A stretch of 64,000 nucleotides of DNA from Heptranchias perlo (Eukaryota), in contig NC_090359.1 of assembly GCF_035084215.1 (NCBI RefSeq), positions 12,276,001 to 12,340,000 of the forward strand, read 5' to 3'. Position numbers and translations under genes: made by a program. The notes beneath the pieces are model-generated. The model was not told the origin of the DNA, did not search any database, and was given only the letters and a program-made list of their open reading frames with translations. This document shows, in pieces, positions 6,014 through 49,095 of the stretch. How positions within the stretch are numbered: position 1 is the first letter of the stretch; every line of letters starts with the position of its first letter.

Positions 6014-6057
6014 GATACCAAAGAACTCAACTATCATTTTACCCACCAACCAACACC

Positions 6058-6087
6058 TTTTATACACTGCAGTCACCTGACTCCAAT
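6058..6087 (-). promoter_or_regulatory. ZP3 copy 1 core promoter: TATAAAA (6064-6058), E-box CACCTG (6074-6079), CCAAT (6083-6087)
   Basis: Same three motifs in the same order upstream of ZP3 copy 2; E-boxes in vertebrate ZP promoters are FIGLA targets (established), binding here is inferred. Confidence 0.7.
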
Positions 6088-7071
6088 TCAATGAGTCGCT
6101 GTTGTGATGCGATTGGATGTCTTTCAGAAAAAATACTCAATGTCTTTAGAATCCTTTTTTTTTCCAATCACTTCCACTGTCCTATTTCTCAAGTTTCTTT
6201 GGAAAAAAAAAGGATTGACCCGCGGTCTGGACTCAACATCAGTGACGGTGCGAACTGCGGGCTGTTAACTGGCAGTAATTGTCTGTCCCAATCAGCCTGA
6301 AGCAGAGTCCGTGGCCCACGGACTCTGACAACATCCACACGTCTCCCACGGAGAGAGGCCTGTGAGGAGAGTGCTGGGGCCGGTCGGTATTGGCGAGCCA
6401 CTTGCCGGCCAATCGAGTGTGGCCCTGCGGAAGTGCTGCAAGCAGGTGCAGAGCACAGAGGAGAGGAGAGCCATCGAGAGGGAAGGAGGGAGAAAGAGGG
6501 AAGGAGGCGAAAAACATCAGGCAGCTGCGAGGGGTGTGCTGCTGCTGTCAGCCTGAAACAGCAGGAAGAGGAGGTCGACGGCGATCGGGGTGGCCGACTG
6601 AAGGTAGGGGGGAGGCAAGAAGATCCTTTTCCAACAGGGGATTCCACCCCCAAGTGTCTGGCCCGTGACAGCTGGAGCTGCCTGGGTGAAGAAACTTTTG
6701 CCATCTGTGGAGGACTGAGCCTAGGCAGCTCCGGCTGTCTGGGAGAAGACATCTCCTCCCCCTGCCCACCGGAAGACTCCACGTTATCGGCCACCCGTGT
6801 ACGTGTACGTTCCTTCCCTCCAGAGACATTTCTGCAGCGGCCCGCCCCTGCAGACTCCCTCCTTCCTCTTTAAGGAACATCCCTCCCTCTCTCTCTTGTG
6901 GTTTCCGCATTTAAAAACAAAAAGGAAAAACGCCCCAGAAAAGGAGCCCCTCTCCCAATAGATCAGTACCATTTTGGGGAGAGGAGGTTTCCTTGGGCTT
7001 TTGGTCCAACAAAAAAAAAGGGAAAATACCTGGAAGACCTAAGATTTGGGGTGGGCGTGGCGTACAAGAGA

Positions 7072-9129
7072 ATGGCAACACCATCTTCGCCAGTGCCGGG
7101 ACCCAGCAGGACGTATGCGGGCGTTACTGCGGCTGCTGCTCCCGCTGCTCGTGCTACTCCTGCTGGCCCGGCGCCATTCCGCCTCGTGACGAGGAAGCAC
7201 GGGGTCAAGGCCTATGCCCACCCCGGCATGACGATTGAGGCCTGCGTGAAGGCCATGGCCGAGGTTGTCGGCCCCTCTGCCATCGTCGCGGCCTCGAAAG
7301 TGTACGGGAAGGTTGTAGTCTTCCTGAGGTCCGAGCGGACGGTGTCCCTGGCCCTTAGCAAGGGGCTCACGGTGGGCGGGACTTTCCTGCCGGTGGACCC
7401 GCTGGAGGCCACCGCGCAGCGGGTGGTGCTGTCAAACGTCCCGCCCTTTCTGCCGGATGAGCTCCTCCTCCCTCACCTGCGTCAACTGGGGGAGGTGAGG
7501 TCGGGGGTAACGCCGCTGTCGCTCGGGCTCAGGGAGACCAGCCTCCATCATGTCTACTCATTCCGTCGCCAGGCCTTTATCAAGCTGGCGTGGGAGGAGG
7601 TTACGGAGGGGGGCTTTAACGCCCTCCATGAGGGGACCGCCTACCGCGTCTTCTGGACGGCAGAGGGTGGGCGGTGCCATGCCTGTAAGGAGGTGGGGCA
7701 CCTGAGGAAGAACTGCCCCGCCTCCCAGGCCGCCAAAGCAGCTCCGGCGGCCGAGGCTGGCGCCGCCACCGCTCCTCCCCCCAAACCCGCCCCCGCGTCG
7801 GGAGAGTCCACTGCGTGGGCGGAGGGTGCCGACGAGGCCTCCGTCGGGGGAGAGGGAGGGAACCCTCGCCCGAAGAAGGCGCGGAAGAAGAGTAGACATC
7901 GGGAGGCTGGTCCCCGGGTTGGAAATCCTTCCAGCCAGCCCGAGGCCGTGGTCGTGACCGCGGCCAAACGACAACTCGCGGTCGCGGCAGAGCCCGGGCT
8001 GGCGGGTATTCAGGAGGGAGCGGAGGGGGGGGCCCCAGCAGACATGGGGCTCGCCCTCCCTCCGCCACCCTCCGGAAAGCAGAAAAGGCGCCGCTCCCTG
8101 GAAGCGGAGGGGAACCCTGCTAAGGGACGGCCCCCCGCGGAAAGGGAGTCGGCGTCGGCGGCGGATCCTGCGACCCCACCCTCCGTTTCCCACCGCCAGC
8201 GGGGGTCATCCACCTCTCGGGGGGAGGAGATCGTGCCCGTGCCTCCCGGGGGGGGGGGGGATGGAGAGACCCTGCCAAAAGGGGGGGGTTGCGGATTCGT
8301 GCACCGATGCGAGCATCCCGTTCACCGGGTCGGGGGTCCTGGGTGCCGGGGCCGAAGGGGCCGGATTCGTCTGCCCTCGGCTGGACCTCTCCCAGGACCT
8401 GCTCGACCTGATGGCGGGATTTAATAGGAACTTATCACCGGCCGGGTCGGTCGGTGGCGACGTGGGTGGGGAGACCCCCTCCTCCCAGTCTCTGGGCATG
8501 GAGCCGGGGGAGGTGGGAGAACTGGAGTACACGTTCTCCCCGGTTTCCCCGGGTTCCCCTTATATCCGGGTGGCAGTTTCCCACCGCTCGGAGGCTGGGA
8601 AGGGACCTCGCCCAGAGCCGCCCTCTGACCCGGACACCCAGGTAGAGCCCGGGGAGGACTCCTCTGCCGACGATCCTGGGGGTGGGATCGTGACAGAGGT
8701 GGGGCCGGCCGGCGCGGCCGTCCCGTTCTCCGCACCCTGTGCGGGGAGTGGGTCGGCCGCGGGCGACGATGATCCGGAGGAGGACGGGGACTCGGTGGAG
8801 GGCACTGGGGAGGATTTGGAGTTCGCCGCCAGTGAGGTGGTGGACACCCTCGTGCCCGGCACCGAGTCTCCCCTCATCCCCGTTGAGGAACTCCGGGATT
8901 TTGTGTCCGGTTGGACCCATCGTTGCGATGGCGTCCGGCTGGCCCTCGAACGTTGGTCGGAGCCGGCGCAATTAATCTGCTCGGTCCGGGCCGCTGTCGC
9001 GTCCGTGACCGCGGAAGAGGACGGCGGCAGGGTCGGGCTGCGCCGGCTCAGATCCCTCCTCACCGGGCTCTTGGGGGGGGGGGGGAGAAAAGGAGGTCGA
9101 CTAGCGGCCCCACTCCCTCCGCGCGTTAG
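7072..9129 (+). pseudogene. Tx1 copy A ORF1 (Gag-like, zinc knuckle CHACKEVGHLRKNC), two frameshifts at G runs
   Basis: Collinear with the intact 680-aa ORF1 at 28856-30898; frame changes at G8 8281-8288 and around G13 9073-9085. Confidence 0.85.
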
Positions 9130-9158
9130 CTTTAAGTTGGTTGCGCTGTGCTCTCGTC

Positions 9159-12100
9159 ATGGAGATAACCATAGCCAGCCTCAACATCAACGGCGGCAGA
9201 GACGCCCGCCGTAGATTTGACAAGTTCTCGGTCCTGCGGGACGGGAAGTATGCGGTGTGCTTTCTGCAGGAAACCCACACCGTTCCGGGAGACGAGGCCA
9301 CGTGGATCCTGGAATGGGGAGGGGGGGTCTACTTGAGTCACCTCGCCAGCGTTTCGAGCGGGGTGGCCATCTTGTTGGCCCCGACTTTTCAGCCGGAGAT
9401 CTTGGGGGTCAAGGAGCCGGTGCCGGGCCGCTTGCTCCACATAGCCCTTCGCCACGGGGACGTGCCGCTTCACCTGGTGAACGTGTACGCCCCCTGGTCC
9501 GGAGCCGAGCAAGTGAGCTTCTTTGAGGAAGTGTCCACTTACCTGAACTCCGTCGACGCCGGCGAGTGCATTATCCTCGGGGGGGATTTTAACCGCACCC
9601 TCGAGGCGAGGGACCGCTCCGGTCCCGCGCGTGCCCGAACGGCGACGGAGAAGTTGAGGGACCTGGTCGGGTCCTTCGACTTGGTGGACGTCTGGCGGAA
9701 TCTCCATCCCGACTCCGGCCAGTTCACCTTTGTGAGGGCCGGAGGGGGGAGCACCAGAATCGACCGCCTGTACGTTTCGCGGGCGTACGCCTCGTGCGTC
9801 CCGTCGGCCTCCATCCGGCCGGTGTCGTGCTCGGACCACCACCTGGTGTGGATGGAGCTCGCTCTGCTCCGCGCCCGGTCGGGGTCCGCGTACTGGCACT
9901 TTAACAACCGGCTGCTGGAGGACGCGCGGTTCCGGGACTCGTTCCGTCTGTTCTGGAGCGACTGGAGAGGGAAGCGGGGAGGCTTCTCCTCCTTGAGGCT
10001 ATGGTGGGACGTGGGCAAGGCTCACGTCCGCCTCTTCTGTCAAGAGTACGCGAGGGGGTCGACTAAGAGGCGGGAGTCCGAGGTCAGGCGGTTGGAGCAG
10101 GAGGTGCTTGGCCTGGAGTCCCGTCTCGGTCAGGCCGCCGAGGATCCGGCCCTGCGGCAGGTGTACGAGGAGAGGAAGGACGCTCTGAGGGACCTGCAAC
10201 TGGTCGGGTCCCGAGGAGCGTACGTGAGGTCGCGGCTCCAGCTCCTGCGGGACCTGGACCGCGGCTCTCCCTTCTACTCGCTGGAAAAGCGGCGGGGGGC
10301 TCGTAAGCAGCTCCTTACGCTGCTGGCCGACGACGGGTCCCTCGTCTCGGACCCGGAGGGAGTCAGGGCCCGTGCTCGATCTTACTACGAGGCTCTGTTC
10401 TCTCCGGATCCGTCCAGCGAGGAGGCGCGCAGAGTTTTGTGGGAGGACCTGCCGAAGGTCGGCCCGGAGGACGCCGAGCGTCTGGACGCTCCGCTCAGTT
10501 TGGCGGAGCTGACCGGCGCCCTCCACCAGCTCTCTAGGGGCAAGTCCCCGGGGCTGGACGGGCTGACCGTGGAGTTCCTCAGGGCCTTCTGGGACGTCCT
10601 GGGGGGCGACTACGCGCGGGTCCTGGGGGAATGTCTGGCGACCGGGGAGATGCCCCTTTCGTGGCGCAGGGCGGTCGTGGTCCTGCTGCCTAAGAAGGGG
10701 GATCTCCGCAACCTTAAAAACTGGCGCCCGGTCTCCCTCCTCAGCACGGATTATAAGGTCTTTGCCAAGGCGATGTCTGCTCGCCTGGGCACCGTGCTGG
10801 CCCACATGATCCACCCCGACCAGTCCTACACGGTCCCGGGCCGGAAGATCCACGATAACATCCACCTGGTCCGGGACCTGATCCACCATTCCCAGAGGGC
10901 TGGTCTGTCGGTCGCCTTCCTTTCCTTAGATCAGGGGAAGGCGTTCGACAGGGTGGATCACGAGTATCTATTCGGGACTCTGCGCGCTTTCGGGTTCGGG
11001 TCGCATTTCGTCGCCCGGATCCGACTTCTGTACGCCGCCGCGGAGTGTCTGATTAAGGTTAACGGATCCTTGACGGCGCCCCTTCGCTTCGGGAGAGGAG
11101 TGCGTCAGGGGTGCCCCATGTCCGGCCAATTATACGCCGTCTGCGTAGAGCCTTTCCTGCGCCTCTTGCGCAAGAGGTTGTCGGGACTGGCTCTGCGCGA
11201 GCCGGACGTGGAGGTCGTCCTTTCGGCTTACGCCGACGACGTGCTCCTCGTGGTCACGGATCCCCTTGACTTGCGGAGGATGCGCGAGTGCCAAGAGGTC
11301 TACTCTGCGGCGTCTTCCGCAAGGATCAACTGGGAGAAATGTTCCGGACTCCTGGTGGGTCAGTGGCGGGTGGACTCCCTGCCGGAGGAGCTCAGGCCTT
11401 TCGCCTGGAGTACCACGCACCTCCGGTACCTGGGAGTCTACCTCGGCCCTGCCGAGGAAGCCTGGCCGGCGAACTGGGAAGAGCTGGAGGCCAAAGTCGC
11501 CGCTCGCCTGGCGCGCTGGACAGGACTGCTCCGAGTGTTATCCTACAGGGGTCGTGTGCTGGTCATAAACCAGCTGGTGGCCGCCATGTTGTGGTACCGG
11601 TTGGTCACTTTGACCCCACCCCCCGAGTTTGTCGCCAACATTCAGAGGAAGTTCGTCGACTTCTTCTGGGCCAGAGGGATGCACTGGGTCGCTGCCGCGG
11701 TCCTGAGTCTCCCGCTTAGGGAGGGCGGTCAGGGGCTGGTGTGCGTCCGCACCCAGGTGGCAACTTTCCGCCTTCGGACGCTGCGGCGATACCTGTACGT
11801 TGAGCGTCCTCTTAGATGGCGTGCGCTGGCGACGTATTTTTTCCGCCAGCTGCACGGCCTGAACGACGACACGCAGCTCCTGTTCATCTCGCTGGTGGGC
11901 GGCCGCATGTCTTTGCAGGAGCTGCCTGTCTTTTACCAGGATCTGCTCAGGGTCTGGAACATGGTCGCCTCCGGTCGGAGCTCATGCCCGTCAGGGGTAG
12001 CGGCCGTCCTGCAGGAGCCGCTGCTCGGGAATCCGTTCCTCCGCGATATCGGCTTCGGCCACTCGCGGCTGTCGGTGCGGAGGGCCGTGGCCGGTCGGGT

Positions 12101-13061
12101 GACCAGAGTCAGGGACGTCCTGGATGGCGGTGGGTCGGGTTGGTTGGAGCCGTGGGCGCTGGCCGCACGGATGTCCTCGTGGCGTGCCGGGGACGCGGCC
12201 ATCGCCATCCGGGCGTTGAAATCGGCGCTCGGCCCTGACTCCACTCGGGATGTGGAGGCGGCTCAGGCGTGCGGAGCCATCCCGTCCGACCTGACCCCCG
12301 TTCGGACGGAGTTCCTCCTCGGCGCCAAACCCCGGAACCTCCCTCGGGGGGCCGCGCCTCACAACTTGAGCCGTCTCTCGGAAATTCCCTCCGTGCTGTT
12401 TCACACCGCGCGGAGGGATTTCCTGTACGGGCTGCTCCTGCACACCCTCCACTTCCTCGCCTTCGTCTCTCGCCCGGACACGCCCTGGCGTGCCATCCTG
12501 CCGTCCGGCGGAGACGGGGGTCCCCAGTGGGGGGCTCTCTACTCAGGGGTCCTCCCGTGTTACTTTGGGGATCTGGGGTGGAGGGTGGCGCACGGAGCAG
12601 TCGCGTGCAACCGGCGGTTACGCCATTTCACGGACACCCAGGCCGCTTGTGATTTCTGCGGCCTGGAGGAGTCCGTGTTCCATCTGTACACGGGGTGTGG
12701 GAGACTGCAGCCCCTGTTCCATTATTTGAAGGGGCTGCTCCTCAAGTTCTGGCTGCATTTCAGTCCCACGCTCCTGATCTTTGGCCGCCCGGTGAGGAGG
12801 GGGGCGGGCAGGTCGGTGGACGTTCTCGTGGGCCTGCTCCTGGGCCTGTCCAAGGTGGCCATCCACAGGTCTAGGATGATCGTGGTCCGTGGGGGCGGTC
12901 GCTCGGCCTGTCTGCCTCTCTTCCGCGGAATGCTCCGCGCCCGGGTGGCCCTGGAGATGGAGCACGCGGTGTCTGCCGGTACGCTCGAGGCTTTCCGCGG
13001 CCGGTGGGCACCGCAGGGGCTGGAGTGCATTCTGGACGAGGAGAATAAAATTTTAATTTGA
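9159..13061 (+). CDS. Tx1 copy A ORF2: AP endonuclease, reverse transcriptase and C-terminal zinc-binding domain (about 1300 aa, uninterrupted)
   Basis: SLNING, LQETH, GGDFN, RIDR, SDHH (EN); KSPGLDG, NWRPVSLL, GVRQGCP, YADD, YLG (RT); CDFCGLEESVFHLYTGC. Confidence 0.95.
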   Translation: MEITIASLNINGGRDARRRFDKFSVLRDGKYAVCFLQETHTVPGDEATWILEWGGGVYLSHLASVSSGVAILLAPTFQPEILGVKEPVPGRLLHIALRHGDVPLHLVNVYAPWSGAEQVSFFEEVSTYLNSVDAGECIILGGDFNRTLEARDRSGPARARTATEKLRDLVGSFDLVDVWRNLHPDSGQFTFVRAGGGSTRIDRLYVSRAYASCVPSASIRPVSCSDHHLVWMELALLRARSGSAYWHFNNRLLEDARFRDSFRLFWSDWRGKRGGFSSLRLWWDVGKAHVRLFCQEYARGSTKRRESEVRRLEQEVLGLESRLGQAAEDPALRQVYEERKDALRDLQLVGSRGAYVRSRLQLLRDLDRGSPFYSLEKRRGARKQLLTLLADDGSLVSDPEGVRARARSYYEALFSPDPSSEEARRVLWEDLPKVGPEDAERLDAPLSLAELTGALHQLSRGKSPGLDGLTVEFLRAFWDVLGGDYARVLGECLATGEMPLSWRRAVVVLLPKKGDLRNLKNWRPVSLLSTDYKVFAKAMSARLGTVLAHMIHPDQSYTVPGRKIHDNIHLVRDLIHHSQRAGLSVAFLSLDQGKAFDRVDHEYLFGTLRAFGFGSHFVARIRLLYAAAECLIKVNGSLTAPLRFGRGVRQGCPMSGQLYAVCVEPFLRLLRKRLSGLALREPDVEVVLSAYADDVLLVVTDPLDLRRMRECQEVYSAASSARINWEKCSGLLVGQWRVDSLPEELRPFAWSTTHLRYLGVYLGPAEEAWPANWEELEAKVAARLARWTGLLRVLSYRGRVLVINQLVAAMLWYRLVTLTPPPEFVANIQRKFVDFFWARGMHWVAAAVLSLPLREGGQGLVCVRTQVATFRLRTLRRYLYVERPLRWRALATYFFRQLHGLNDDTQLLFISLVGGRMSLQELPVFYQDLLRVWNMVASGRSSCPSGVAAVLQEPLLGNPFLRDIGFGHSRLSVRRAVAGRVTRVRDVLDGGGSGWLEPWALAARMSSWRAGDAAIAIRALKSALGPDSTRDVEAAQACGAIPSDLTPVRTEFLLGAKPRNLPRGAAPHNLSRLSEIPSVLFHTARRDFLYGLLLHTLHFLAFVSRPDTPWRAILPSGGDGGPQWGALYSGVLPCYFGDLGWRVAHGAVACNRRLRHFTDTQAACDFCGLEESVFHLYTGCGRLQPLFHYLKGLLLKFWLHFSPTLLIFGRPVRRGAGRSVDVLVGLLLGLSKVAIHRSRMIVVRGGGRSACLPLFRGMLRARVALEMEHAVSAGTLEAFRGRWAPQGLECILDEENKILI

Positions 13062-13606
13062 ACACTTGGTTTTGGTTTGTTTGGTTTTAGTATTTAAGCA
13101 CACACCACACCCCCCCTTCTTATAAAAGGGGGGCCTAACAAAATAAAAAAAAATATAAAAGGAAAAAAAAAATCTGAAAGTTTCTCTTTCTTTCAATCTC
13201 TTGGAATCATAACTTTGAATTATTTGATAATAATTTGATATTTTCACTGAAGTGGCTTTTCATAATCTGGTCAAGTTTATTACTTGTTAGTGATTGTGAT
13301 GTTGAGACAATATTCAAAGCAATCAAGTTGTCTTGAATGAATTTGCAAACCATCCATTGGTCAGAGAAATGGAAATTCCATCCCATGGATGGTGTGAATC
13401 GTCCCCAGTTCTAATATAGAGAATGGGTGTGTCTGAGGATTGGCAGCATGGGGGCATCAACTGGGCAAAGCATTGTGGGATGCATCATTTTTAGTTTTGA
13501 TTCTCATGAAATGTTGTTTGGTAAAATTCAGGATATTCAGCGAGAATGAGAGGCAGTGAAGATTACTGAATGCAATGTCACCCACACAAACATCTCCATT
13601 TGTGTC

Positions 13607-18287: not shown

Positions 18288-19226
18288 TAGTTTAAACCCT
18301 CCCCAACAGCACTAGCAAACACTCCCCCTAGGACATTGGTTCCAGTCCTGCCCAGATGCAGACCGTCCAATTTGTACTGGTCCCACCTCCCCCAGAACCG
18401 GTTCCAATGGCCCAGGAATTTGAATCCCTCCCTCTTGCACCATCTCTCAAGCCACGTATTCATCTTAGCTATCCTGTCATTCCTACTCTGACTAGCCCGT
18501 GGCACTGGTAGCAATCCTGAGATTACTACCTTTGAGGTCCTACTCTTTAGTTTAACTCCTAACTCCCTAAATTCAGCTTGTAGGACCTCATCCTGTTTTT
18601 TACCTATATCGTTGGTGCCTATATGCACCACGACAACTGGCTGTTCACCCTCCCCCTCCAGAATGTCCTGCAGCCGCTCCGAGACATCCTTGACCCTTGC
18701 ACCAGGGAGGCAACATACCATCCTGGAGTCTCGGTTGCGTCCGCAGAAACGCCTGTCTATTCCCCTTACAATCGAGTCCCCTATCACTATAGCTCTGCCA
18801 CTCTTTTTCCTGCCCTCCTGTGCAGCAGAGCCAGCCACGGTGCCATGAACCTGGCCACTGCCACCTTCCCCTGGTGAGCCATCTCCGCCAACAGTATCCA
18901 AAACGGTATACCTGTTTTGGAGGGAGATGACCGCAGGGGACCCCTGCACTGCCTTCCTACTCTTCCTCTGTCTGTTGGTCACCCATTCACTATCTCCCTC
19001 AGTAATTTTTATCTGCGGTGTGACCAACTCACTGAACGTGCTATCCACGACTTTCTCAGCATCGCGGATGCTCCAAAGTGAGTCCATCCGCAGCTCCAGA
19101 GCCGTCAAGCAATAGCTGCAGCTGGACACACTTCCCGCAGGTGAAGGAATCAGGGATACAGGAAGGAGCCCTGAATTCCCACATCCCACAAGAGGAACAT
19201 GACACGGCGCTGGGATCTCCTGCCAT
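18287..19226 (-). pseudogene. CR1 ORF1 (N-terminal CxxC..CxxC, SGNH/GDSL esterase domain), frameshift near 19110
   Basis: ATG at 19226 reads MAGDPSAVSCSSCGMW..TCGKC; a different frame continues LTALELRMDSL..GDSIVR..HIGTND..DGLHL. Confidence 0.8.
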
Positions 19227-20252: not shown

Positions 20253-22810
<2,558 letters not shown>

Positions 22811-23106: not shown

Positions 23107-23282
23107 TTTCCGTGACCGGTGGGCACCGCAGGGACTGGAGTGCATCCTGGATCGATGTAATAAAATTATAATTTGACACTTATTTTGGGTTTATTGATTT
23201 ACTGCACATAAACACAACCAACCCCCCCTCCCCTTCTTATAAAAGGGGGGCCTAAAACACAAAAAAAGGAAAAGCAAAAAAA
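23107..23282 (+). mobile_element. Tx1 3' stub (last ~25 codons of ORF2, 3'UTR, A tail)
   Basis: RWAPQGLECILD-coding sequence, cttataaaaggggggcctaa hairpin, A-rich tail. Confidence 0.9.
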
Positions 23283-23570
23283 CCATGGCTGCTCTTCCAT
23301 CCCACACTCCAAAGAAAAAAAAATCTGATCGTGACCATATTCTTGACCATAATCGACCTTTCTTTGATGGACCAATAAGGGAGACTCTGGGTTGCCCCAG
23401 GGTCACCAAACATAAACCATCACAAGTGGCCCTCTCAGGGCACCACTAATATTGGATGGTCCAATCAAACTGAAAAGAGACCAAAATAAGCATCAAGTGC
23501 CACCAAAAACAACAGGATACTTTCCCAATTAAATCAGGATTCTATTATTGATGTCTGAAAGACAGTCTAT

Positions 23571-28147: not shown

Positions 28148-28855
28148 AGCTTTGCAATACAGACCAGCAAGGCCTTGGAGGTGTTTGTGGCTGGACTGCC
28201 ACTGAGTGGAGTGGAGAGCAGAGAGAGCAGGCCCTTGCCTGGGTCCCTTGGGGAGAAGGAGAAGGAGAAGGAGAAAGAAGGAGAAACCACCATCAACAAG
28301 GAGGGAGGGAGAAGGAGAAAAAGAGCACCAACCAGTGGGAGGAAGAGGTGGTCGGTGCAGTGAGGTGTGTCGGCTGAAGGTAGGGGGAGGAAGAAGACTT
28401 CAGAGGACAGGGGTCCCCCCCAAGTGTCTGGCCCGGGACAGCTGGAGCTGCCTGGGTGAAGTTACTTTCTTTTTCAAATCTTTGGAGGACTGAGCCTAGG
28501 CAGCTCCAGCTGTCTAGGGGAAGACATCTCCTCCCCCTGCCCACCGGAAGACAGGCAGAAGAGGATCCACCTTTTAAGGTGCAACCCCGCCCCTCTTCCA
28601 CCCACTTCTGCAGCAGCCTACCCCTGCAGACTCCCTCCTTCCCATTCTGCCATCCATCCCTCCCACCTTCTCCTGCTCTCTGGGATATTCCCTTGCTCTC
28701 CGGGGTATTCTGGGAATATATAAAAACAACAAAGGGGCCCTCTCCCAACCAAGCACTGGGATTCGGGGAGAGAGGTATCCTCAAGAATTCTTTTAAAAAA
28801 AGGCCAATTTCCATCCAAAGGCCTGAGACTTGGGGTGGGTGTGGCTCTTTAGGTC

Positions 28856-30898
28856 ATGGCTTCACCATCTTCGCCGGTGCCGGGACCCAGCAGGACGTAT
28901 GCGGCGGTTACCTCGGGGGCCGCTCCCACAGTTCGTGCCGCTCCTGCTGGGCCGGCGCCTTTCCGCCTCATTACGAGGAAGCATGGGGTGAAGAGCTACG
29001 CCCACCCCAACATGACCATTGAGGCCTGCGTAAAGGCCATGGCCGAGGTTGTCGGCCCCTCGGCCATCGTCGCGGCCTCAAAAATGTACGGGAGGGCGGT
29101 GTTCTTCCTGAGGTCCGAGCGGGCGGTGTCCCTGGCCCTTAGTAAGGGGCTCACGGTGGGCGGGACCTTCCTGCCGGTGGACCCGCTGGAGGCCACCGCG
29201 CAGCGGGTCATTTTATCTAACGTCCCGCCTTTCCTGTCGGACGAGCTCCTCCTCCCCCACCTACGTCAACTGGGGGAGGTGAGGTCGGGGGTAACGCCGC
29301 TGCCGCTCGGACTCAGGGAGAACAGCCTCCGGCATGTTTACTCCTTCCGTCGCCAGGCATTCGTCAAGCTGGCACGGGAGGAGGTTACGGAGGGGGGCTT
29401 TAACGCCCTCCACGAGGGGACCCCTTACCGCGTCTTTTGGACGGCAGAGGGTGGGCGGTGCCATGCCTGTAAGGAGGTGGGGCACCTGAAGAGGAACTGC
29501 CCTGCCTCTCAGGCCGCCAAAACAGCTACGGCGGCCGGGGCTGGCGCCGCCACCGCTCCTCCCCCCAACCCCGCCCCCGCGTCGGGAGAGTCAACTGCGC
29601 GGGTGGAGGTTGGCGTCGAGGCCTCCGCCAGGGGGGAGGAGGGGAACCCTCGCCAGAGAAAGGCGCAGAGAAAGAGGAAGAATCTAGAGGCTGGTCCCCG
29701 GGACAGAGAAGATCTCAGTCAGCCCGAGGCCGTGACCGCGGCCAGTCAACATCTTGCGGTCGCGACAGAGCCCGGGCTGGCGGGTGATCAGGAGGGAGCG
29801 GAGGCGGGGGTCCCAGCAGACATTGAGTCCCCCCTCCCTCCGCGACCCTCCTGGAAGAAAAAGAGGCACCACTCCCCGGAAGCGAACGGGCTCCCTGCTA
29901 AGGGACGGCCCCCCGTGGAAGGGGAGTCGGTGCCGGTCGCGGATCCTGCGGCCCCGCCCGTGACATCCGAACAGCGGCGGGGGTCATCCACCTCTCGGGG
30001 GGAGGAGATCGTGCCCGTGCCTCCCGGGGGGGATGGAGAGACCCCGCCGATAGGGGGGGTCGCGGATCCGCATTTACCCGACACTACCCTGTTCACCGGG
30101 TCGGGGGTCCTGGGTGCCGGGGTGGGCGAGGCCGTTGCGGCCGAATTCGTCTGCCCCCGGCTCGACCTCTCCCAGGACCTGCTCGACCTGGTGGTGGGTT
30201 TTAACCAGAATATCTCGCCGGCCGGGTCGGTCGTTGGCGACGTGGGTGGGGGGACCCCCTCCTCTCAGTCTCTGGGCTCGGAGCCGGGGGAGGTGGGAGA
30301 ACTTGAGTACACGTTCTCCCCGGTTTCCCCGGGTTCCCCTTATATCCGGGTGCCGGTCTTTCACCGCTCGGTGGCTGGGGAGGGTCCCCGCCCGGCGCCG
30401 CCGTCTGACTCGGACCCCCCGGTGGAGCCCGGGGAGGACTCCTCTGCCGACGATCCTGGGGGTGGGATCGTGGCGGAGGCGGGGCCGGCCGGCGCGGCCG
30501 TCTCGTTCTCAGCACCCTGTGCGGGGGCTGGGTCGGCCGCGGGCGACGATGACCCGGAGGAGGACGGGGACTCGGTGGTGGGCACTGGAGAGGATTTAGA
30601 GTTCGCCGCCAGTGAGGTGGTGGACGCCCTCGTGCCCTGCACCGAGTCTCCCCTCATCCCCGTTGAGGAACTCCGGGATTTTGCGTCCGGTTGGAGCAGT
30701 CGTCGCGATGGCGTCCGGCTGGCCCTCGACCGTTGGTCGGAGCCGGCGCAGTTAATCCGCTCGGTCCTGGCCGCCGTCGCGTCCGTGGCCGCGGAAGGGG
30801 ACGGCGGCGGGGTCGGGCTGCGTCGGCTCAGATCCCTCCTCACCGGGCTCTTGAGGGAGTGGCGGTCGACTAGCGGCCCCGCTCCCTCCGCGCGTTAG
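28856..30898 (+). CDS. Tx1 copy B ORF1 (680 aa, CCHC zinc knuckle, low-complexity C-terminal half)
   Basis: Uninterrupted ORF; VILSNVPPF, CHACKEVGHLKRNC. Confidence 0.9.
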   Translation: MASPSSPVPGPSRTYAAVTSGAAPTVRAAPAGPAPFRLITRKHGVKSYAHPNMTIEACVKAMAEVVGPSAIVAASKMYGRAVFFLRSERAVSLALSKGLTVGGTFLPVDPLEATAQRVILSNVPPFLSDELLLPHLRQLGEVRSGVTPLPLGLRENSLRHVYSFRRQAFVKLAREEVTEGGFNALHEGTPYRVFWTAEGGRCHACKEVGHLKRNCPASQAAKTATAAGAGAATAPPPNPAPASGESTARVEVGVEASARGEEGNPRQRKAQRKRKNLEAGPRDREDLSQPEAVTAASQHLAVATEPGLAGDQEGAEAGVPADIESPLPPRPSWKKKRHHSPEANGLPAKGRPPVEGESVPVADPAAPPVTSEQRRGSSTSRGEEIVPVPPGGDGETPPIGGVADPHLPDTTLFTGSGVLGAGVGEAVAAEFVCPRLDLSQDLLDLVVGFNQNISPAGSVVGDVGGGTPSSQSLGSEPGEVGELEYTFSPVSPGSPYIRVPVFHRSVAGEGPRPAPPSDSDPPVEPGEDSSADDPGGGIVAEAGPAGAAVSFSAPCAGAGSAAGDDDPEEDGDSVVGTGEDLEFAASEVVDALVPCTESPLIPVEELRDFASGWSSRRDGVRLALDRWSEPAQLIRSVLAAVASVAAEGDGGGVGLRRLRSLLTGLLREWRSTSGPAPSAR

Positions 30899-30927
30899 GT
30901 TTAAGTAGGTTGCGCTGTGCTCTTGCC

Positions 30928-32962
30928 ATGGAGATAACCATAGCCAGCCTCAACATCAACGGCGGCAGAGACGCCCGCCGTAGATTTGACAAGTTCTCGG
31001 TCCTGCGGGACGGGAAGTATGCGGTGTGCTTTCTGCAGGAAACCCACACCGTTCCGGGAGACGAGGCCACGTGGATCCTGGAATGGGGAGGGGGGGTCTA
31101 CTTGAGTCACCTCGCCAGCGTTTCGAGCGGGGTGGCCATCTTGTTGGCCCCGACTTTTCAGCCGGAGATCTTGGGGGTCAAGGAGCCGGTGCCGGGCCGC
31201 TTGCTCCACGTAGCCCTTCGCCACGGGGACGTGCCGCTTCACCTGGTGAACGTGTACGCCCCCTGGTCCGGAGCCGAGCAAGTGAGCTTCTTTGAGGAAG
31301 TGTCCACTTACCTAAACTCCGTCGACGCCGGCGAGTGCATTATCCTCGGGGGGGATCTTAACCGTACCCTCGAGGCGAGGGACCGCTCCGGTCCCGCGCG
31401 TGCCCGAACGGCGACGGAGAAGTTGAGGGACCTGGTCGGGTCCTTCGACTTGGTGGACGTCTGGCGGAATCTCCATCCCGACTCCGGCCAGTTCACCTTT
31501 GTGAGGGCCGGAGGGGGGAGCACCAGAATCGACCGCCTGTACGTTTCGCGGGCGTACGCCTCCTGCGTCCCGTCGGCCTCCATCCGGCCGGTGTCGTGCT
31601 CGGACCACCACCTGGTGTGGATGGAGCTCGCTCTGCTCCGCGCCCGGTCGGGGTCCGCGTACTGGCACTTTAACAACCGGCTGCTGGAGGACGCGCGGTT
31701 CCGGGACTCGTTCCGTCTGTTCTGGAGCGACTGGAGAGGGAAGCGGGGAGGCTTCTCCTCCTTGAGGCTATGGTGGGACGTGGGCAAGGCTCACGTCCGC
31801 CTCTTCTGTCAAGAGTACGCGAGGGGGTCGACTAAGAGGCGGGAGTCCGAGGTCAGGCGGTTGGAGCAGGAGGTGCTTGGCCTGGAGTCCCGTCTCGGTC
31901 AGGCCGCCGAGGATCCGGCCCTGCGGCAGGTGTACGAAGAGAGGAAGGACGCTCTGAGGGACCTGCAACTGGTCGGGTCCCGAGGAGCGTACGTGAGGTC
32001 GCGGCTCCAGCTCCCGAACACGGCTCTCCCTTCTTCTACTCGCTGGAAAAGCGGCGGGGGGCCCGTAAGCATCTCCTTACGCTGCTGGCAGACGACGGGT
32101 CCCTCGTCTCGGACCCGGAGGGATTCAGGGCCCGGGCTCGATCTTACTACGAGGCTCGATTCTCTCCGGAGCCGTCCAGTGAGGAAGCGCGCAGAGTTTT
32201 GTGGGAGGACCTGCCAAAGGTCAGCCCGGAGGACGCCGACCGGCTGGACGCTCCGCTGAGTCTGGCTCGGAGGGCTGCTCCTCACAACTTGAGCTGTCTC
32301 GGAAATTCCCTCCGTGCCTTTTCACTCCGCGCGGAGGTATTTCCTGTACGGGCTGCTCCTGCACACACTCCACTTCCTCGCCCTCGTCTCTCGCCCGGAC
32401 ACGCCCTGGCCTGCCGTCCGGCAGAGGCGGGAGTCCCCAGATGGGGGGGCTCTCCACTCGGGGATCCTCCCGTGTTACATCGGGCATCTGGGGTGGAGAG
32501 TGTTGCACGGAGCAGTCGCGTGCAATAGGCGTTTACCCCATTTTACGGACTCCCAGGCCGCCTGCAATTTCTGCGGCCTGGAGGAGTCCGTGTTTCATTT
32601 GTTCACGGGGTGTGGGAGACTGCAGCCCCTGTGATTATTTGGAGGGGCTGCTCCTCAGGTTCTGGCTGCAATTCAGTCCCACGCTCCTGATCTTTGGCCG
32701 CCCGGTGAGGAGGGGGGCGGGCAGGCCGGCGGACGTCCTCGTGGGCCTGTCCAAGGTGGCCATCCACAGGTCCAGGTTGCTTGCGGCCTGTGGGGGCGGT
32801 CGCTCGGACTGTCTGCCTCTCTTCCGCGGAATGCTCCGCGCCCGGGTGGCCCTGGAGATGGAGCACGCGGTGTCTGCCGGTACGCTTGAGGCTTTCCGCA
32901 ACCGGTGGGCACCGCAGGGGCTGGAGTGCATCCTGAACGAGGAAAATAAAATTATAATTTGA
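30928..32962 (+). pseudogene. Tx1 copy B ORF2 remnant (intact EN, frameshifts, about 1.8 kb RT deletion)
   Basis: EN almost identical to copy A up to ~32010; no YADD region; C-terminus split across frames. Confidence 0.9.
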
Positions 32963-33044
32963 AACTGGTTTTGGTTTTTCTTTGGGATTTTTGCACATAA
33001 AAACACCCCAAATCCCCCTCCTTTTAAAAGGGGGGCCTAAAAAA

Positions 33045-33380
33045 TGTCGCTGTTGGGAATGGAAAAAAGTCGCGAAAAAATCCTGGCTGCTAAAAACAGC
33101 AAAAAGGTCACTGCTTTGATGCGATTGGATGTCTTTCAGACTCATCAGAAAAAGAGTAGCTGATAAACCCCCGGCTGCTCTTCCATCCCACACTCCTGAG
33201 CTGAGCGGAGTGGTGAAAATAGTAAAAAACTGTTTTTGATCCAACTCAATGTCTTTCGGATGCTCCTTTCGTTCAATCACTTCCATTGTCCTATTTCATA
33301 AATTTCTAAAAGAAAAAATAAGGAGTCACTGTTGGGATACGATTGGATGTCTTTCAGACAGACCATCAATCCATCCAGGA
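33045..33380 (+). repeat. Stack of short modules separated by A-rich runs, between two Tx1 elements
   Basis: GTCRCTG...GATTGGATGTCTTTCAGA at 33107-33140 and 33323-33358 (partial at 33046); modules shared with 6093-6214 and 23287-23310. Confidence 0.75.
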
Positions 33381-34208
33381 ATCAGCCTGACTGAACTTGC
33401 CAGTTAATACTGCTGAGTGGAGCAGAGGTCAGAGTTAAAGCTCTGGGTGGAGAGCAGGGTGAAAAGAACTAGCCCTTGCTTATATAACTGAATCCAGGAG
33501 AAGGAGAGGAACAAACAACCAACAGGGAGGAAGGAGGAAGAAGACGACCACCATTCACTGAGGGGTGTGCTGCTGCTGACCGATACCATCCAACAGAGGG
33601 GGGGGGGGGGGGAGGAAGAGGAGGTCGGTGCGGTGCAGTGTGACCAACTGAAGGTCGGGGGAGGAAAGATCATACAGAACAGGGGGTTTCCCCCCCAGTG
33701 TCTGGCCCAGGACAGCTGGAGCTGCCTGGGTGAAGTTACTTTTCAATCTGTGGAGGACTGGGCAGCTCCAGCTGTCGAGGGGAAGACATCTCCTCCCCCT
33801 GCCCACCAGAAGATCCACCTGTTAAGGTGCAACCCCACCCCTCTTCCACCCACTTCTGCAGCAGCCCACCCCTGCAGACTCCCTCCTTCCCATTCGACCA
33901 TCCCTCCCTCCCACTATCACGGATATTCTTTTTTACAAAATCCTGCAAAGGAGCCCCTCTCCAAACAGTGGGAATTGGGGAGAGGAGGTTTTCTTTTGCA
34001 AGGCCTTTGTTATTAGTCAGCCTGAGACTTGGGGTGGGTGTAGCTCGATGGAATATGGCGACACCATGTCCGCCGATGGGCACTGCAGGGGCTGGAGAGC
34101 ATCCTGGACAAAAATAATAAAATCTTAATTTGACACTGGTTTTTGGTTTTCTGCACAAACACACCCTAAACCCCCACTAATTATAAAAGGGGGGCCTAAG
34201 AAAAAAAA
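33381..34208 (+). mobile_element. Bipartite non-autonomous Tx1 derivative (5'UTR and first ORF1 codons fused to last ORF2 codons, 3'UTR and A tail)
   Basis: 5'UTR hairpin 33711-33776; ATGGCGACACCATGTCCGCCG joined to TGGGCACTGCAGGGGCTGGAG at about 34075; TATAAAAGGGGGGCCTAA and A tail. Confidence 0.88.
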
Positions 34209-37021
34209 GCAGAGATCAGAGACAGCGGTCACAGTCAGGGCCAGGATCAGGATCAGGACCACCTCAGACTCCACACCTAAAACGGAAGAAGAAACCAATG
34301 GTTAGTGAGTGAAGGAAATATTGAGGGGAAAATGGAAACCAGCAGTCCGCCAACTCACCACCTGGAGACCTCTCCTGCATCCTTTGCTCAACATCATTAA
34401 GGGGCTCAGTTGCCAGGTCTGACACTTCAGGATCCAGAATGACCAGGGGTCCAAGTGAGGCCTCACCCTCCCACTTCAATTCAGCATCACTCCCTGCAAT
34501 ATCAAACATTCCAGTTAGAGAGGGTAAAGGGTGACCTCCAACATAGAGAGGATCCACTGCAGCAACTTTCAGGTGACAGGTGATGAAAATCTGAGGGACA
34601 CATTCAATACAAGTTGTTATTTAGTGACCTCCTCCCAACATGGGGAACCCAATGTTTGGCTTCCTCTTACCAAGGAACGGTCATCTCCAAAGAAGCGGAA
34701 TGCATCCAGGTCAAACTGGAGTTTGTCCAGCTCACGTTCACCTCTTGGCAACACAAAGGTTGAAAAGGAGTCCTCAGCTTTGCTGTCCAGGAGGCAACTG
34801 AAGAAAGATTTAAAAAACAGACAAAGTGAATTAAGTGAACCTTTGGGACATAACCAGCTGGAATAGGCAGAGAGCTCCTTACCCATGGTAGTCAATGATG
34901 TTGTATCTTGGGGTGGAATCCTTGTCTGGGCTCAATGTAGCTGCACAGCTGTCAATGTAGAGCTTCAAGGGCATGTGGTTGGTCATTGAAACAGAGGCCT
35001 CAATGTGAATGAGGTCACCCAGGTAGTAGACAGTCGAGGTGCGCTCTGTAAGCCAATCATCTGAAGTACAAGAGGACAAGGGTTGGAGACAGTGGGTGTA
35101 ACTCCCAGTGGGAGACGACAGAAAAGCACTCCCCATCCACCCATCACATACCGTTCATAAGACACAGTGAGAATGACAGAAGCCCTTCTCCAGACTTGGT
35201 CGAGCTGAATGGGATCCAGGTGGGCTTGATAGGGTCACTGCTCACATTGCCCTTCCTGGAAGGACAGGCGTGTAATTTCAGGACAACTTCAGAGAACTGC
35301 ACCTGCTGTAGACCTCATTTGCAATAGAGTAAAGATTCTTACCTAAAATAGTGGCACTCAATGGGAATGACTGCTCCATTAGTTCTCACAATGACAGATC
35401 CACAAGCATTTGGGGTATGGTTCAGGTGGGTGGTGAAGACCAGGAAATCTCCAGCCATCTGAAAGACATCAGCTTAAGGAATGAAGAGCTGGTCTTATTG
35501 GACAAGAGCTATTTCTGGTCATTTTCCTGCCCTGTTAAACAGCAGTTTGAGGGGTTTTCACTGCTCCTCAATCACACATGATTGAAGCAGCTCCACCATT
35601 GGCAGAAGTTGCCTGCAGCAGCCTCTGTTACTCTGCTCAGTCCACCTTCTATTACAGGGGACTTCAGGCCTGCAGTCAGAAACCCTGAAATGATTGGCAC
35701 AGCCAGATTTGATGAGCATTCTTTCCCAAATAGAATAGAGTTTTCACCTTAAGGGGCTTCAAGTTACCCCTGATAAGGAGCACAAAACACAACATCACTT
35801 TTAAACCTCATCTGTATCCATGGAATCAAGGGGATTGGCAGGTGTAATAACCAAAAGTGGAGTTCCCCTTTAATTCATTGTATCCCAATTATTATTCCAC
35901 TTGTTTCATCTTTCAAGAGAAGTCTCAACAGGAACTTCCACACTGAACATTCATTGACCACAAGTTGAGGCAACAGGCCTGAATATCCACAGGAAGGCAC
36001 AGAAAAGATAAATCAATTGAGGCACAAAAGAACAGAGTGGTTTGGAGAAATGTAGGTGAAGGTTCAAGGTCAATAGAATTGAATCTCAGAGTGAGAGTAG
36101 TAATGACCCATTTAAGAAAGATGCAGTCCCTCAGTGACAATTTGAAGTTCTTTTTAAATATGAAGCTAAGATAGACATGGCAACATAAAGAAGTAGTTTC
36201 ACACAGGGTGATATTTAACAGTGGGCAAGAATTTATACACAGATTTCATTCAGGGATCTCCTCAGTGGCTGGAGTTTCACCCGATGTTAATGAGTTCTGA
36301 GTGGGCAGTAATCTACACAGTGAAATTGGAGCAAGAGTTGAGGAATCACATTACCTGCAATCTGCTGCCACATTCATGGAGCCCATAGTCAAAGAGGACA
36401 GTGTGGTTCTGAGAGTAGATCCCAGTTGGCCAACAACCTGCTGTCCCCAGGGTCAGGTCAGCAGCTTTAATCAGGTGCCTGGTTCTAAATAAATCCATGT
36501 CTACCCTCACCAGCAGGTTCTGCTCTCCACACTGCACCATCACAGTCTGCAGTGGGGACAGACTTCTCCCCTCAGACACACTGAAATGGGAATCAAAGGG
36601 AGGCACAGGGAGAGGGACTCTCTGGGGCACAGGGGTGGGTTTTACTCTTCTCCATGGAAATCTCTGCCCTCTAAACTGTTGCCAAATGTCAGAGCAACAA
36701 ACCACTCCAACTAACACCAGCACCGGGAACAAACCTCTCACCACAAAATCCCCCATGATACCAAACAACTCAACTATCACTTCACCCACCAACCAGCACC
36801 TTTTTTTTTTCTTTTTCTTTTTTTTTCCATGGAAATCTCTGGCCTCTAAACTGTTCCCAAATATCAGAGCAACAAACAGCTCCAACTAACACCGGGACCG
36901 GGACCGGGACCGGGACCGGGACCGGGACCGGGACCGGGACCGGGACCGGGACCGGGACCGGGACCGGGACCGGGACCGGGACCGGGACCGGGACCGAACC
37001 TCTCACCACTAAATCCCCCAT
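34207..37021 (-). pseudogene. zp3: ZP3 copy 2, disrupted (main ATG 36756; extra partial exon 1 upstream; deletion of half of exon 6 through exon 7; exon 9 cut by the Tx1 tail)
   Basis: Exons and introns closely match copy 1; junction gaggatc|cactgc at about 34551; C-terminal codons and stop absent. Confidence 0.9.
36891..36996. repeat. (ACCGGG)n microsatellite, about 17.5 units, inside the duplicated ZP3 signal-peptide sequence
   Basis: Perfect hexamer array; reads (VP)n on the minus strand. Confidence 0.95.
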
Positions 37022-37065
37022 GATACCAAACAACTCAACTATCACTTTCCCCACCAACCAGCACC

Positions 37066-37099
37066 TTTTATACACAACCTGCAGTCAGCTGACTCCAAT
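37066..37099 (-). promoter_or_regulatory. ZP3 copy 2 core promoter: TATAAAA (37072-37066), E-box CAGCTG (37086-37091), CCAAT (37095-37099)
   Basis: Matches the copy 1 promoter. Confidence 0.7.
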
Positions 37100-37136
37100 T
37101 GTCCCAGATGAGGCTAAACGAGAAAACTAGACGAAA

Positions 37137-37450
37137 CTGGAGTGCATCCTGGACCGAAATAATAAAATTATTATTTGACACTTATTTTGGGTTTTTTGGT
37201 TTATTGCACATGAACACACCCTGAACCCCCCCCCCCCCACTACTTATAAAAGGGGGGCCTAAAAACACACAAGGAAAAAGGGGGAAAAAAAGCCTCATTC
37301 TGACTGAACTTCCAGTCGACAAAAAAAACCACCCAAACCCCCCCTTCTTATGAAAGAGGGCCGAAAACACAAGGGAAAAAAATTATTATGACACATATTC
37401 TGGGTTTATTGTTGACTGCACATGAACACACTCGAAGAATAAAAAAACAA
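37137..37450 (+). mobile_element. Cluster of about three Tx1 3'-end stubs plus a short putative Tx1 5'-end piece
   Basis: ctggagtgcatcctggac..hairpin..A tail (37137-37291); tcattctgactgaacttccag (37295-37315); second hairpin ~37338-37362; third 3'UTR piece ~37380-37450. Confidence 0.8.
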
Positions 37451-37799
37451 GGCCTCCGCCGGGGGGGAAGGAGGGCACTCTCGTGGAAAAAAGGCGGGGA
37501 GGAAAATCAAACATCTGGAAGAAGCTTGGCGAAGACATAAAATTAAAGTTGGCGTCAGGGAATTAAACCACGGACGAAGGCGGGGCAACTCACCACGATA
37601 AAAGAGAAAGAAAGAACGAAAGAAAGACAGAGTCAGTTGTTCGTTGTCTAACAAAGAGATGGAAATGTTAAAGGTTCTTTCAACGGTGGCCCGTGGAAAA
37701 TTAAACAAACTGTGATCAAATAAATCGTTGAAAGAAATTCACTGACACATGAAGCATTTTTAACGCCATCTGGGGTGAGTGTAGAATCAATATCGTAGT

Positions 37800-47384: not shown

Positions 47385-47879
47385 AGAAAACGGCTGAAGT
47401 GAAGCTGGAACTGACTTCCCAACATCACAACTCAATTCCAGATCAAAATTATCACCTCAATTTACCAAAGGGACTCAGCATCAGGGCCAACGCTATCTCC
47501 TTTAAACACATTTCTTCTCAAAAGTTAGATCAAAATTTAATTTTACAGCAGCCGACAAAAAATGAGCAAAAGCAACAGACAGTAACATTATCAAAACATG
47601 TTCCTGTATTCAGATCATTTTTTAAACACGTCCTCAGGGAATCTGACCCGAAATGTAATTGTCCGGAGGAAGGGCTGTGAATTAGCGACTGGATATTAGT
47701 TTCCACCGGACCGGACTAATAATCGAGCCCCGCCTACAGCATCTGTGGGGTTAATTCTCTCTTTTAACTATTTCTGGGCCCCCTTAAAACATTCCTGTAA
47801 CTCCGTGTCTGTGATATTTTTAACAGCCGTTGGTCCTCAATAGTCTGGGAATCACTGATGGGTTTTTTTTCTGCCTTCT

Positions 47880-48462
47880 CCCGGATTCAGGAGGCAGGCA
47901 AGGGCTGTCGTTTTGCTCTGCTCAGACCTCCACTCAGCTCGGTTCTGAAGTGTTCACTGGAAGTGCAGTCAGAATGACGCTTGATTTTTTTTGATTTTTT
48001 TTGTGTTTTTAGGCCCCCCTTTTATAAGAAGCGGGGTTTAGGGTGTGTTCATGTGCAGAAAAACCAAAAAACCCAAAATAAGTGTCAAATTTAAATTTTA
48101 TTATTTCGGTCCAGGATGCACTCCAGCCCCTGCGGTGCCCCCCGGTCGCGGAAAGCCCCAAGCGAACCGGCAGACACCGCGTGCTCCATCTCCAGGGCCA
48201 CCCAGGCACGGAGAATTCCGCAGAAGAGAGGCCGACAGTTGGAGCGACCGCCCCCACGGGCCCCGTCTAACCTGGACCTGTGGATGGCCACCTTGGACAG
48301 GCCCACGAGGAGATCCTCCGACTGACCCGCCCTCCTCCTCACCCGGTGGCCAAAGACGAGGAGCGTGGGACTGAAACGCAGCCAGAAGTTGTGGAGCAGC
48401 CCCTTTAAATAGTGGAACAGGGGCTGCAACCTCTCACACTCCTTGTAGACATGAAACACGGA
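47880..48462 (-). mobile_element. Tx1 3' fragment (48462-~47985) followed head-to-tail by a putative Tx1 5'-end fragment (~47980-47880)
   Basis: ORF 48091-48459 is the ORF2 C-terminus; hairpin 48010-48035; after the A tail, TCATTCTGACTGCACTTCCAG..CTGAGTGGAG..GCCCTTGCCT resembles the 5' ends at 33381 and 28190. Confidence 0.8.
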
Positions 48463-49095
48463 ATCATTCAGGCGCAGAAGGTCTGTTGATGTTTCAAAAC
48501 AGGCGTGAAGTCTTTTTTTTAAAAATCAGGCCAATGACTCAGTTAGAATAGTTGATGGAGGAATTTCACAGGAGTAGATGAAGTTTCAGTCACTCAGAAG
48601 GGATTAACAGAGAGTAAAGCCGGGTTAGCTGGAGGCACTGCCGCAGAAGGGGAACCGAGGAATGAGTGAATGCACAGAAGGCCAGTGTTGGAGGATCAAA
48701 GAGTGTGGGACATGGAGATGGAGGCGTTTGCAGAGGTCGGACAGGCAAACCTTGGAGGGACTTATAGGGAACGTGTTGAGGGTCAGGAAACCAATGGAAG
48801 TCAATGAGATCTGATCAGTGGAGCAATGGGAGGGCGGGGTATGGGGATCGGCAGGGAGGTGATCGAAGGGGAGGAGTCCAGAGATAATGCTCAAAGGAAG
48901 AGATGTTGACAAAGCAGGAAGGGGTGAGGCCAATGTGTGTTTGGAAGAAATCCACGGCAACACCACAGAGGTTAGGGGGAGAAGGTGAATTGTACAGACA
49001 GGCAGTGAGGATTCAGAAAGTACCTTGTATGACAGTGTTACCACTCATCAGACAAGTTTCAGTCAGAAAGAGTGAAAGGGGAAAACGCCAAATAC

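Follow-up and report, generated by a model that had tools for sequence, protein, structure and literature searches.

Conserved 3' end of a probable Tx1-clade LINE and the stacking of its copies near ZP3 and ferritin promoters in Heptranchias perlo

The window, a stretch of 64,000 nucleotides from Heptranchias perlo, contains two ZP3-type and two ferritin genes on the minus strand, a 7TM receptor gene on the plus strand and numerous LINE remains. A Pfam search of 133 further ORFs of at least 75 aa gave no additional host gene, short exons being of a kind that would escape it. The ferritin paralogues (20249-22832 and 25644-27901, minus strand) have exons that are 91-98% alike; copy 1 may be a pseudogene, the region of its exon-1 splice donor being changed. 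A full-length LINE of CR1/L2 type, with a GDSL-esterase ORF1, an intact ORF2 of 990 aa and tandem repeats of 53-63 nt at its 5' end, occupies 15339-19759 on the minus strand, and a zf-RVT fragment (52831-53070) lies 0.9 kb upstream of a shortened U2 snRNA-like sequence (53957-54110; Rfam, 52 bits). Our subject is another LINE, the copies and parts of which are as follows.

6290..13172, plus strand: LINE A, near full-length (6.9 kb), likely Tx1 clade; 5' start uncertain (6090-6290)
13044..13090, plus strand: AATAAA overlapping the end of ORF2 in A, then a U/G-rich block; present in 6/6 longer 3' ends
13111..13138, plus strand: 3'-terminal motif of A (C-run, TTATAAAA, G6, CCTAA); weak stem-loop with UAUAAA at the loop
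13137..13172, plus strand: patterned A-rich tail of A, with a second TATAAAAGG at 13154
23107..23283, plus strand: F, a 5'-truncated copy; motif at 23228-23255
23285..23327, plus strand: Tx1 5'-start stub (26 nt) and A run, directly after the F tail
28180..33045, plus strand: B, with an internal deletion of 1.8 kb; motif variant TTTTAAAA at 33014-33040
33046..33380, plus strand: stack of short A-flanked units and a Tx1 5'-start stub at 33174
33380..34209, plus strand: mini-element M, internally deleted, its 5' UTR and ~20 nt of ORF1 joined to the last ~135 nt
37100..37519, plus strand: stack Z, made of the five pieces below
37137-37294, plus strand: Z 3' piece and tail
37295-37319, plus strand: Z 5'-start stub
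37333-37375, plus strand: hairpin stub Z2
37376-37431, plus strand: Z 3' UTR stub
37447-37519, plus strand: Z ORF1 fragment
47987..48479, minus strand: G, a 5'-truncated copy; motif at 48009-48036
47845..47977, minus strand: Tx1 5'-start piece (~140 nt) directly after the G tail, with no element body beyond

LINE A is likely to belong to the Tx1 clade, as judged from its proteins. ORF2 is intact (9159-13061, 1300 aa) and has APE and RT domains (PF03372 and PF00078); upstream lies an ORF1 with a zinc knuckle (from 7072; PF00098 at E=0.004, which is below the curated cut-off), and this is the architecture of Tx1-clade elements. A medaka protein of the cluster 'transposon TX1 uncharacterized 149 kDa protein' matches ORF2 with 37% identity over 1301 aa (794 bits); the score of ORF2 against human L1 ORF2 is 285 bits, obtained with phmmer, a different program from that of the medaka comparison. 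A full HMMER search found 1040 relatives. A word-based protein search with the C-terminal region of ORF2 gave zero matches, and protein-pattern scans of metagenome and viral contigs gave no related loci.

Target-site duplications are credible for only one of six copies, F, which is enclosed together with its stub by one 8-bp direct repeat, AAAATCTG (23099 and 23320). The tail of M joins or interrupts the 3' end of ZP3 copy 2, and M is a candidate non-autonomous family. Two short A-flanked units at 6090-6214 recur between B and M (33046-33360), one of them three times; such units could represent DNA from upstream of ZP3, short RNAs that were retro-copied, or an extension of the Tx1 5' end. An inverted piece of 5'-start sequence (37105-37134) precedes the 5' junction of Z. 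Several CCAAT boxes and a GC box (48520-49090) adjoin the 5' junction of G, with a start-like TCTTTCTGACTGAAACTT at 49070 on the minus strand; the region 48480-49100 was not accepted as a Tx1 5' UTR (z of only 1.4-3.6).

The original prediction described a motif directly before the tail of these elements. This motif is real and is found at seven Tx1-clade LINE 3' ends, but only one of them (13111) has CCCCCC-TTCTTATAAAA-GGGGGG-CCTAA in full and without mismatch, and the sites at ~34171 and ~37231, given earlier as plain matches, have the motif with broken 5' arms. Allowing up to two mismatches, TTCTTATAAAAGGGGG occurs at seven sites in the window (13117, 23234, 33019, 34178, 37241, 37345 and, on the minus strand, 48030), against a chance mean of 0.02; the 16-mer of the motif is exact in three of seven copies and the core TAAAAGGGGGGCCTAA in six. 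Across the six longer copies, identity is 96.7% in the 20-nt core, 67.3% in the middle 3' UTR and 84.8% in the coding end (the last 42 coding bases). Among the window copies compared, the loop and 3' arm do not vary, in contrast to a drifting 5' arm.

Public contigs tell the same story. We aligned contigs to 47790-48270 at 80% likeness from four runs, two of the window's organism and one each from organisms B (X9) and C (X11); all four runs consist of contigs, X2 being a DNA run, X9 a guessed DNA run, and X11 and X1 guessed RNA runs. In all four, contig depth over 47790-48270 peaks at the hairpin and has its trough in the middle UTR. Summed depth, which is not copy number, is 17,935 at the hairpin versus 4,480-5,498 in the middle UTR in X2, 93 versus 4-13 in X9 and 194 versus 0-10 in X11. 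Contigs of organisms B and C keep the motif, the rest of their 3' UTR having diverged, and four contig joints in the four runs jump 71-83 nt from the end of ORF2 to the hairpin. Among the rows listed (31 rows lie beyond those), no substitution falls in 47995-48031; the C arm has two one-base deletions in one X11 contig. The motif is, judging from these sequences, under selection, because depth peaks at the hairpin, the middle UTR diverges and contig joints skip the UTR.

Rfam gave no family at the motif and three matches elsewhere in the window. DNA-motif scans gave no viral, 11 metagenome and one genome match, which we attribute to chance; none of the 12 loci has ORF2-like sequence, and they have nothing in common beyond the motif. 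Two metagenome contigs (L001:985-1008 and L009:401-424) have a common repeat, unrelated to Tx1, with the same TATAAAAGGGGGGCC context, which looks like the true TATA region of another repeat.

The motif had been said to fold as a stem-loop. Every copy can fold (-7 to -14.4 kcal/mol), but the stem is weak and no better than that of shuffled sequences. In the matrix of seven copies by eight pairs, 49 of 56 cells pair and seven are broken. Covariation, which had been put forward as a check, is lacking: none of the eight pairs is altered on both sides, and two one-sided changes keep pair 13-24. For none of the six whole 3' UTRs is the fold better than in shuffles (z from +0.26 to -1.87), and only the short Z2 stub reaches -2.61. 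A second hairpin farther upstream, in which U/G-rich pairs with CA-rich sequence, was seen in single folds and is absent from the consensus fold; we did not accept it. Structure is not the most conserved property of the motif, because no pair changes on two sides, seven cells are broken and the UTRs fold like shuffles. The proposed role as a stem-loop recognized by the reverse transcriptase is plausible, but covariation lends it no support. The hairpin is probably an ordinary LINE 3' end that is unusually conserved for the L1/Tx1 group.

What the TATAAA of the motif stands for can be judged from its geometry. A TATA core promoter has TATAWAWR about 30 nt before the initiator; here the next start is 51-52 nt from the motif. 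The claim of a consensus TATA box stands for five of the seven copies, which have TATAWAWR, but not for the other two. The two copies without the consensus keep or improve the stem; variant hexamers, TTTAAA or TATGAA, are carried by two copies. We take the motif to match the adenovirus major late TATA context, and the host ZP3 TATA boxes of the window read TATAAAAGG, the same as the motif. A caveat in the original prediction, that TATAAA might simply be a variant poly(A) signal, is the best fit, with 20-27 nt from the hexamer to a CA and then the tail. From the first base of TATAAA to the CA end there are 20 nt in A, 22 or 24 in F, 23, 25 or 27 in Z, 23 or 25 in G and 21 or 23 in Z2 (hexamer TATGAA); the range holds for five of seven copies, B and M being without a CA within it. 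In Xenopus tropicalis, UAUAAA is an over-represented signal at -24 +/- 4.9 of poly(A) sites, and U-rich elements lie 40-80 nt upstream of such sites (PMC6616101); the U/G-rich block of the Tx1 3' UTR falls within the latter position. Vertebrate L1s have a poly(A) signal at their end, before the tail (PMC5381506). In the position of UAUAAA and in its U-rich upstream element, the geometry of the motif is that predicted for a variant poly(A) site.

A canonical AATAAA with a GU-rich block is present ~95 nt upstream of the motif signal in 6/6 copies, and should compete with the weak UAUAAA signal. With its CA, this segment (13044-13090 in A, and equivalents) has the look of a complete poly(A) site preceding the hairpin, and it could remove the hairpin from part of the Tx1 RNA. 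A poly(A) signal alone leaves the invariance of G6-CCT unexplained.

Head-to-tail junctions exist, as originally reported. Three of the seven tails are followed by a Tx1 5' start, one more than counted before. The sequence TCATTCTGACTG(A/C)ACTTCCAG does stand right after the tail at 37295 and at 47977 on the minus strand (two matches, none by chance), and in the third case the tail at 23253 leads to a diverged 5' start at 23288, the same as that at 33174 (z=15), which itself resembles the 47977 start (z=8). The likeness of the post-tail sequence to the beginning of the mini-element at 33385 also held up, in an alignment with the 5' end of that element (z=20), and the distances from TATA to start, earlier put at 51-52 nt, measure 52 and 51 nt. 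The 'initiator' TCATTC did not fare as well, being TCAGCC at 33382 and absent at 23288 and 33174. A reading of TCATTCTGACTG...CAG as a host splice acceptor was dropped, as the sequence aligns with Tx1 5' UTRs. The tail of A leads into unique DNA and that of B into short A-flanked units, with a stub 130 nt farther on; F is followed by a 5'-start stub of 26 nt, Z by a stub of 25 nt and G by a 140-nt start, whereas M runs into the 3' end of ZP3-2 and Z2 into another copy's 3' stub.

From such junctions it had been proposed that the 3' TATA acts as a promoter for the next downstream copy, as in Drosophila HeT-A/TAHRE. HeT-A is a precedent (PMC5537684), the motif is strongly conserved with the TATA consensus in five of seven copies, and the 5' starts after three of seven tails are joined by more tail-start-stub joins in X2. 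However, all three downstream starts are stubs (~26, 25 and 140 nt) with no element body, and the hairpin is directly upstream of none of the three copies with long 5' ends (A, B and M); that is, none of the three is a transcribable copy behind another 3' end. The spacing of 51-52 nt spans a tail of variable length, the Tx1 3' UTR is ~75-95 nt from stop to tail rather than long and promoter-bearing as in HeT-A, and site preference alone predicts tandems. Summed depth in X2 is 17,935 at the hairpin, 793 at the tail-to-start junction (~4%) and 216-225 in the start; the junction figure is a rough lower bound only, because starts less than 80% alike are uncounted and depth is not copy number. Loose ends at the tail in X2 (19 and 5 contigs) have an agreement of 0.4 and 0.5, i.e., mixed flanks. 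On this evidence a promoter for the next copy is highly improbable.

Repeated insertion at A-rich TTTT/A sites explains the stacks better than a HeT-A-like promoter. Junctions of T|AAAA type are found in the ZP3 TATAAAA (at 36801 and in run X9), in the AATAAAA of another copy (37375, and also in X2) and in the direct repeat of F; the L1 insertion consensus is TTTT/AA (PMC3415434). A check for a sequence-specific target found only A-rich T|AAAA-type sites in common among the 3' flanks, with copy positions clustered at promoters. In Drosophila, tandems of non-LTR elements that arise by multiple insertion at one site are common (PMC5932611). Double insertion alone does not explain the 3'-truncated starts and internally deleted minis.

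The promoters concerned, and one further junction, are the following.

6057..6064, minus strand: TATA box of ZP3 copy 1; A begins at most 226 nt upstream, head-to-head
22892, minus strand: TATA box of ferritin-1; F is 215 nt upstream, head-to-head
28019, minus strand: TATA-like box of ferritin-2; B is 161 nt upstream, head-to-head
37072, minus strand: TATA of ZP3-2; stack Z is 28-64 nt upstream, with its 5' junction at 64 nt, head-to-head
36801..37066, minus strand: ZP3 exon-1 piece, its A tail joining the ZP3-2 promoter at the AAAA of the TATA box

Each of the four ZP3 and ferritin promoters in the window is preceded, 64-226 nt upstream of its TATA, by an independent Tx1 copy. M and G lie away from promoters, and no Tx1 copy is found upstream of the receptor gene. 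That four of six copies should fall in 300-nt promoter zones has a binomial P of ~2e-6 and was reached in 0 of 200,000 random placements, values that apply to a question framed post hoc and to one rearranged gene cluster. In X9 the tail joins a ZP3 promoter inside TATAAAA, in sense orientation, at the same nucleotide as the 36801 junction, and in X11 it is linked to the boundary of ferritin intron 1 and exon 2, with 30 of at least 255 letters compared. Of 346 loose ends 24 were listed, five of them at the tail (three mixtures and two from single contigs); both single-contig ends listed match ZP3 or ferritin, though the reference 47790-48270 contains neither gene. Ovarian RNA could have favoured ZP3 and ferritin flanks, the library types of the runs being guesses. 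The ZP3 exon-1 piece has a (CGGTCC)n expansion (36891-36996) and is in part closer to ZP3-1 (94%); from its sequence it may be a retro-copied short transcript of the paralogue.

In zebrafish follicles the most abundant transcripts include those for ZP and ferritin (PMC1488847), and by analogy we infer oocyte expression of ZP3 and ferritin in the window's organism. The positions suggest that Tx1 may target the promoters of oocyte genes. Such a preference may be new for the Tx1 family; we found no literature dealing with the motif, with Tx1 in sharks or with its presence at Pol II promoters, in a search that had subscription journals and Repbase outside its scope, so that these may be known.

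One way to account for these positions would be guidance of the element to Pol II core promoters, e.g., by binding of its ORF1p to TBP or an oocyte TBP paralogue. In a second part of this proposal the 3' TATAAAAGG would act as DNA and bind the same factor, such that old copies attract new ones and the element can replace a host TATA that it has split. The occupation of 4/4 ZP3 and ferritin promoters, all head-to-head, is what such guidance predicts, as is the entry into a ZP3 TATA box twice, in two organisms, although the distance to the host TATA varies between 0 and 226 nt (44-54 nt in TRE5), the X9 copy is sense where the window copies are antisense, and both M and the X11 copy touch gene bodies rather than promoters. 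Dictyostelium TRE5-A, whose ORF1p binds TFIIIB (PMC5911963), is a precedent. The identity of the motif with the ZP3 TATA, and an invariant loop and 3' arm beside a drifting 5' arm, would fit a TATA that works as DNA; in X9 the element's TATA is ~26 nt farther from the ZP3 start than the native one, and a start near the junction would still precede the ATG. Yet TATAAAA is simply a good TTTT/A site, the consensus is lost in two of seven copies, and neither the window nor the rows listed show an insertion into the TATA of the hairpin itself. We consider both parts of this proposal quite unlikely.

Alternatively, the stacks may have been inherited: tandem duplication and recombination within the ZP3/ferritin cluster would have multiplied one or two old insertions, 3' transduction from few source loci would have supplied the stubs, and selection would have removed all but the tolerated copies. 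The promoters of ZP3-1 and ZP3-2 cease aligning at the same base (6088/37100), the 6090-6214 units recur at 33107-33360, the left and right flanks of M are unrelated, and F and its stub lie together within one direct repeat, as expected of a unit moved by transduction or a template jump. This common descent is unlikely, as the four copies near promoters are unlike one another in length, in 5' junction and in sequence (A and Z are 73% alike), two unrelated gene families are flanked, and two other organisms again have ZP3 and ferritin flanks, at different positions.

We give a probability of roughly 0.6 to a Tx1 3'-end signal combined with repeated insertion at oocyte-gene hot spots, which is the most likely explanation of our results. 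Processing at the signal, which we infer from its observed sequence and geometry, would proceed as follows: UAUAAA in the RNA would be a weak variant poly(A) signal with a U-rich element upstream, and the RNA would be cleaved at the CA in the templated end (...CCTAAAAACACA). The motif would resemble a TATA box because UAUAAA is TATAAA. The ORF2 protein of the element probably also recognizes the invariant AAAAGGGGGGCCUAA segment, which lies in a loose stem-loop. As to the order of insertion, the positions observed suggest that new copies would land repeatedly at L1-like TTTT/A A-rich sites, namely old tails, the AATAAAA of ORF2 ends and host TATAAAA boxes; head-to-tail stacks would arise because of repeated insertion at such sites, which also fixes orientation. 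Short 5'-start stubs would accompany insertions through template jumps or read-through, or may be products of internal deletion. The hot spots would be the promoters of highly expressed oocyte genes (ZP3 and ferritin), for which our default guess is open germline chromatin.

A bolder version, which we find doubtful, has a vertebrate Tx1 LINE seek out the core promoters of multicopy oocyte genes with high expression (ZP3 and ferritin), lie head-to-head with them, borrow their germline activity and sometimes cut the TATA, with a conserved 3' TATA mimic that doubles as poly(A) signal and as spare TATA or landing pad. If true, an oocyte-promoter preference would show how a vertebrate LINE secures germline expression, and would give a new target class for the Tx1 clade and an enzyme with promoter-proximal integration. 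Since ORF2 is intact in copy A, the insertion preference is directly testable.

Compared with known systems, the element behaves as an L1/Tx1 3' end combined with tandems that arise from site preference would. It resembles Tx1-clade elements (Xenopus Tx1L, Keno, Kibi, Koshi and crocodilian Tx1-Mar) in its two ORFs, APE and RT domains and A-rich tail. The clade is noted for target preference, for a piggyBac or Mariner transposon, U2, U5 or 5S genes, satellites or microsatellites (PMC4494074); promoters of protein-coding genes, however, are not among the targets given there. With the stringent-type LINE 3' stem-loops it shares a 3' end that is short and conserved, adjoins the tail and is able to fold into a hairpin. 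In that type (the monocot L1 lineage and L2), stems vary with compensatory changes and loop or flank bases are fixed (PMC3747384), whereas the Tx1 motif is without compensatory change and has a fixed 3' arm and a drifting 5' arm. The head-to-tail order, a 3' end adjoining a 5' start, is that of Drosophila HeT-A/TAHRE, but HeT-A is confined to telomeric arrays, its 3' UTRs are long and its downstream copies intact, and Tx1 is interspersed, with a 95-nt UTR and downstream stubs. Closer are the double-insertion tandem dimers of R1, jockey and DMRT1B (PMC5932611), where an intact 3' end also lies beside a truncated neighbour at a preferred site, although among the Tx1 neighbours many are minis with internal deletions or 5' starts truncated on their 3' side. 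Finally, Dictyostelium TRE5-A is likewise an L1-type non-LTR element that inserts upstream of promoters in opposite orientation (here 4/4 in the window, the X9 copy being sense), and its own promoter gains from the neighbour (PMC5911963). TRE5-A, however, uses TFIIIB to insert at Pol III tRNA genes within a narrow window of 44-54 nt, whereas the Tx1 copies, as far as their sequences indicate, lie at Pol II genes at 0-226 nt.
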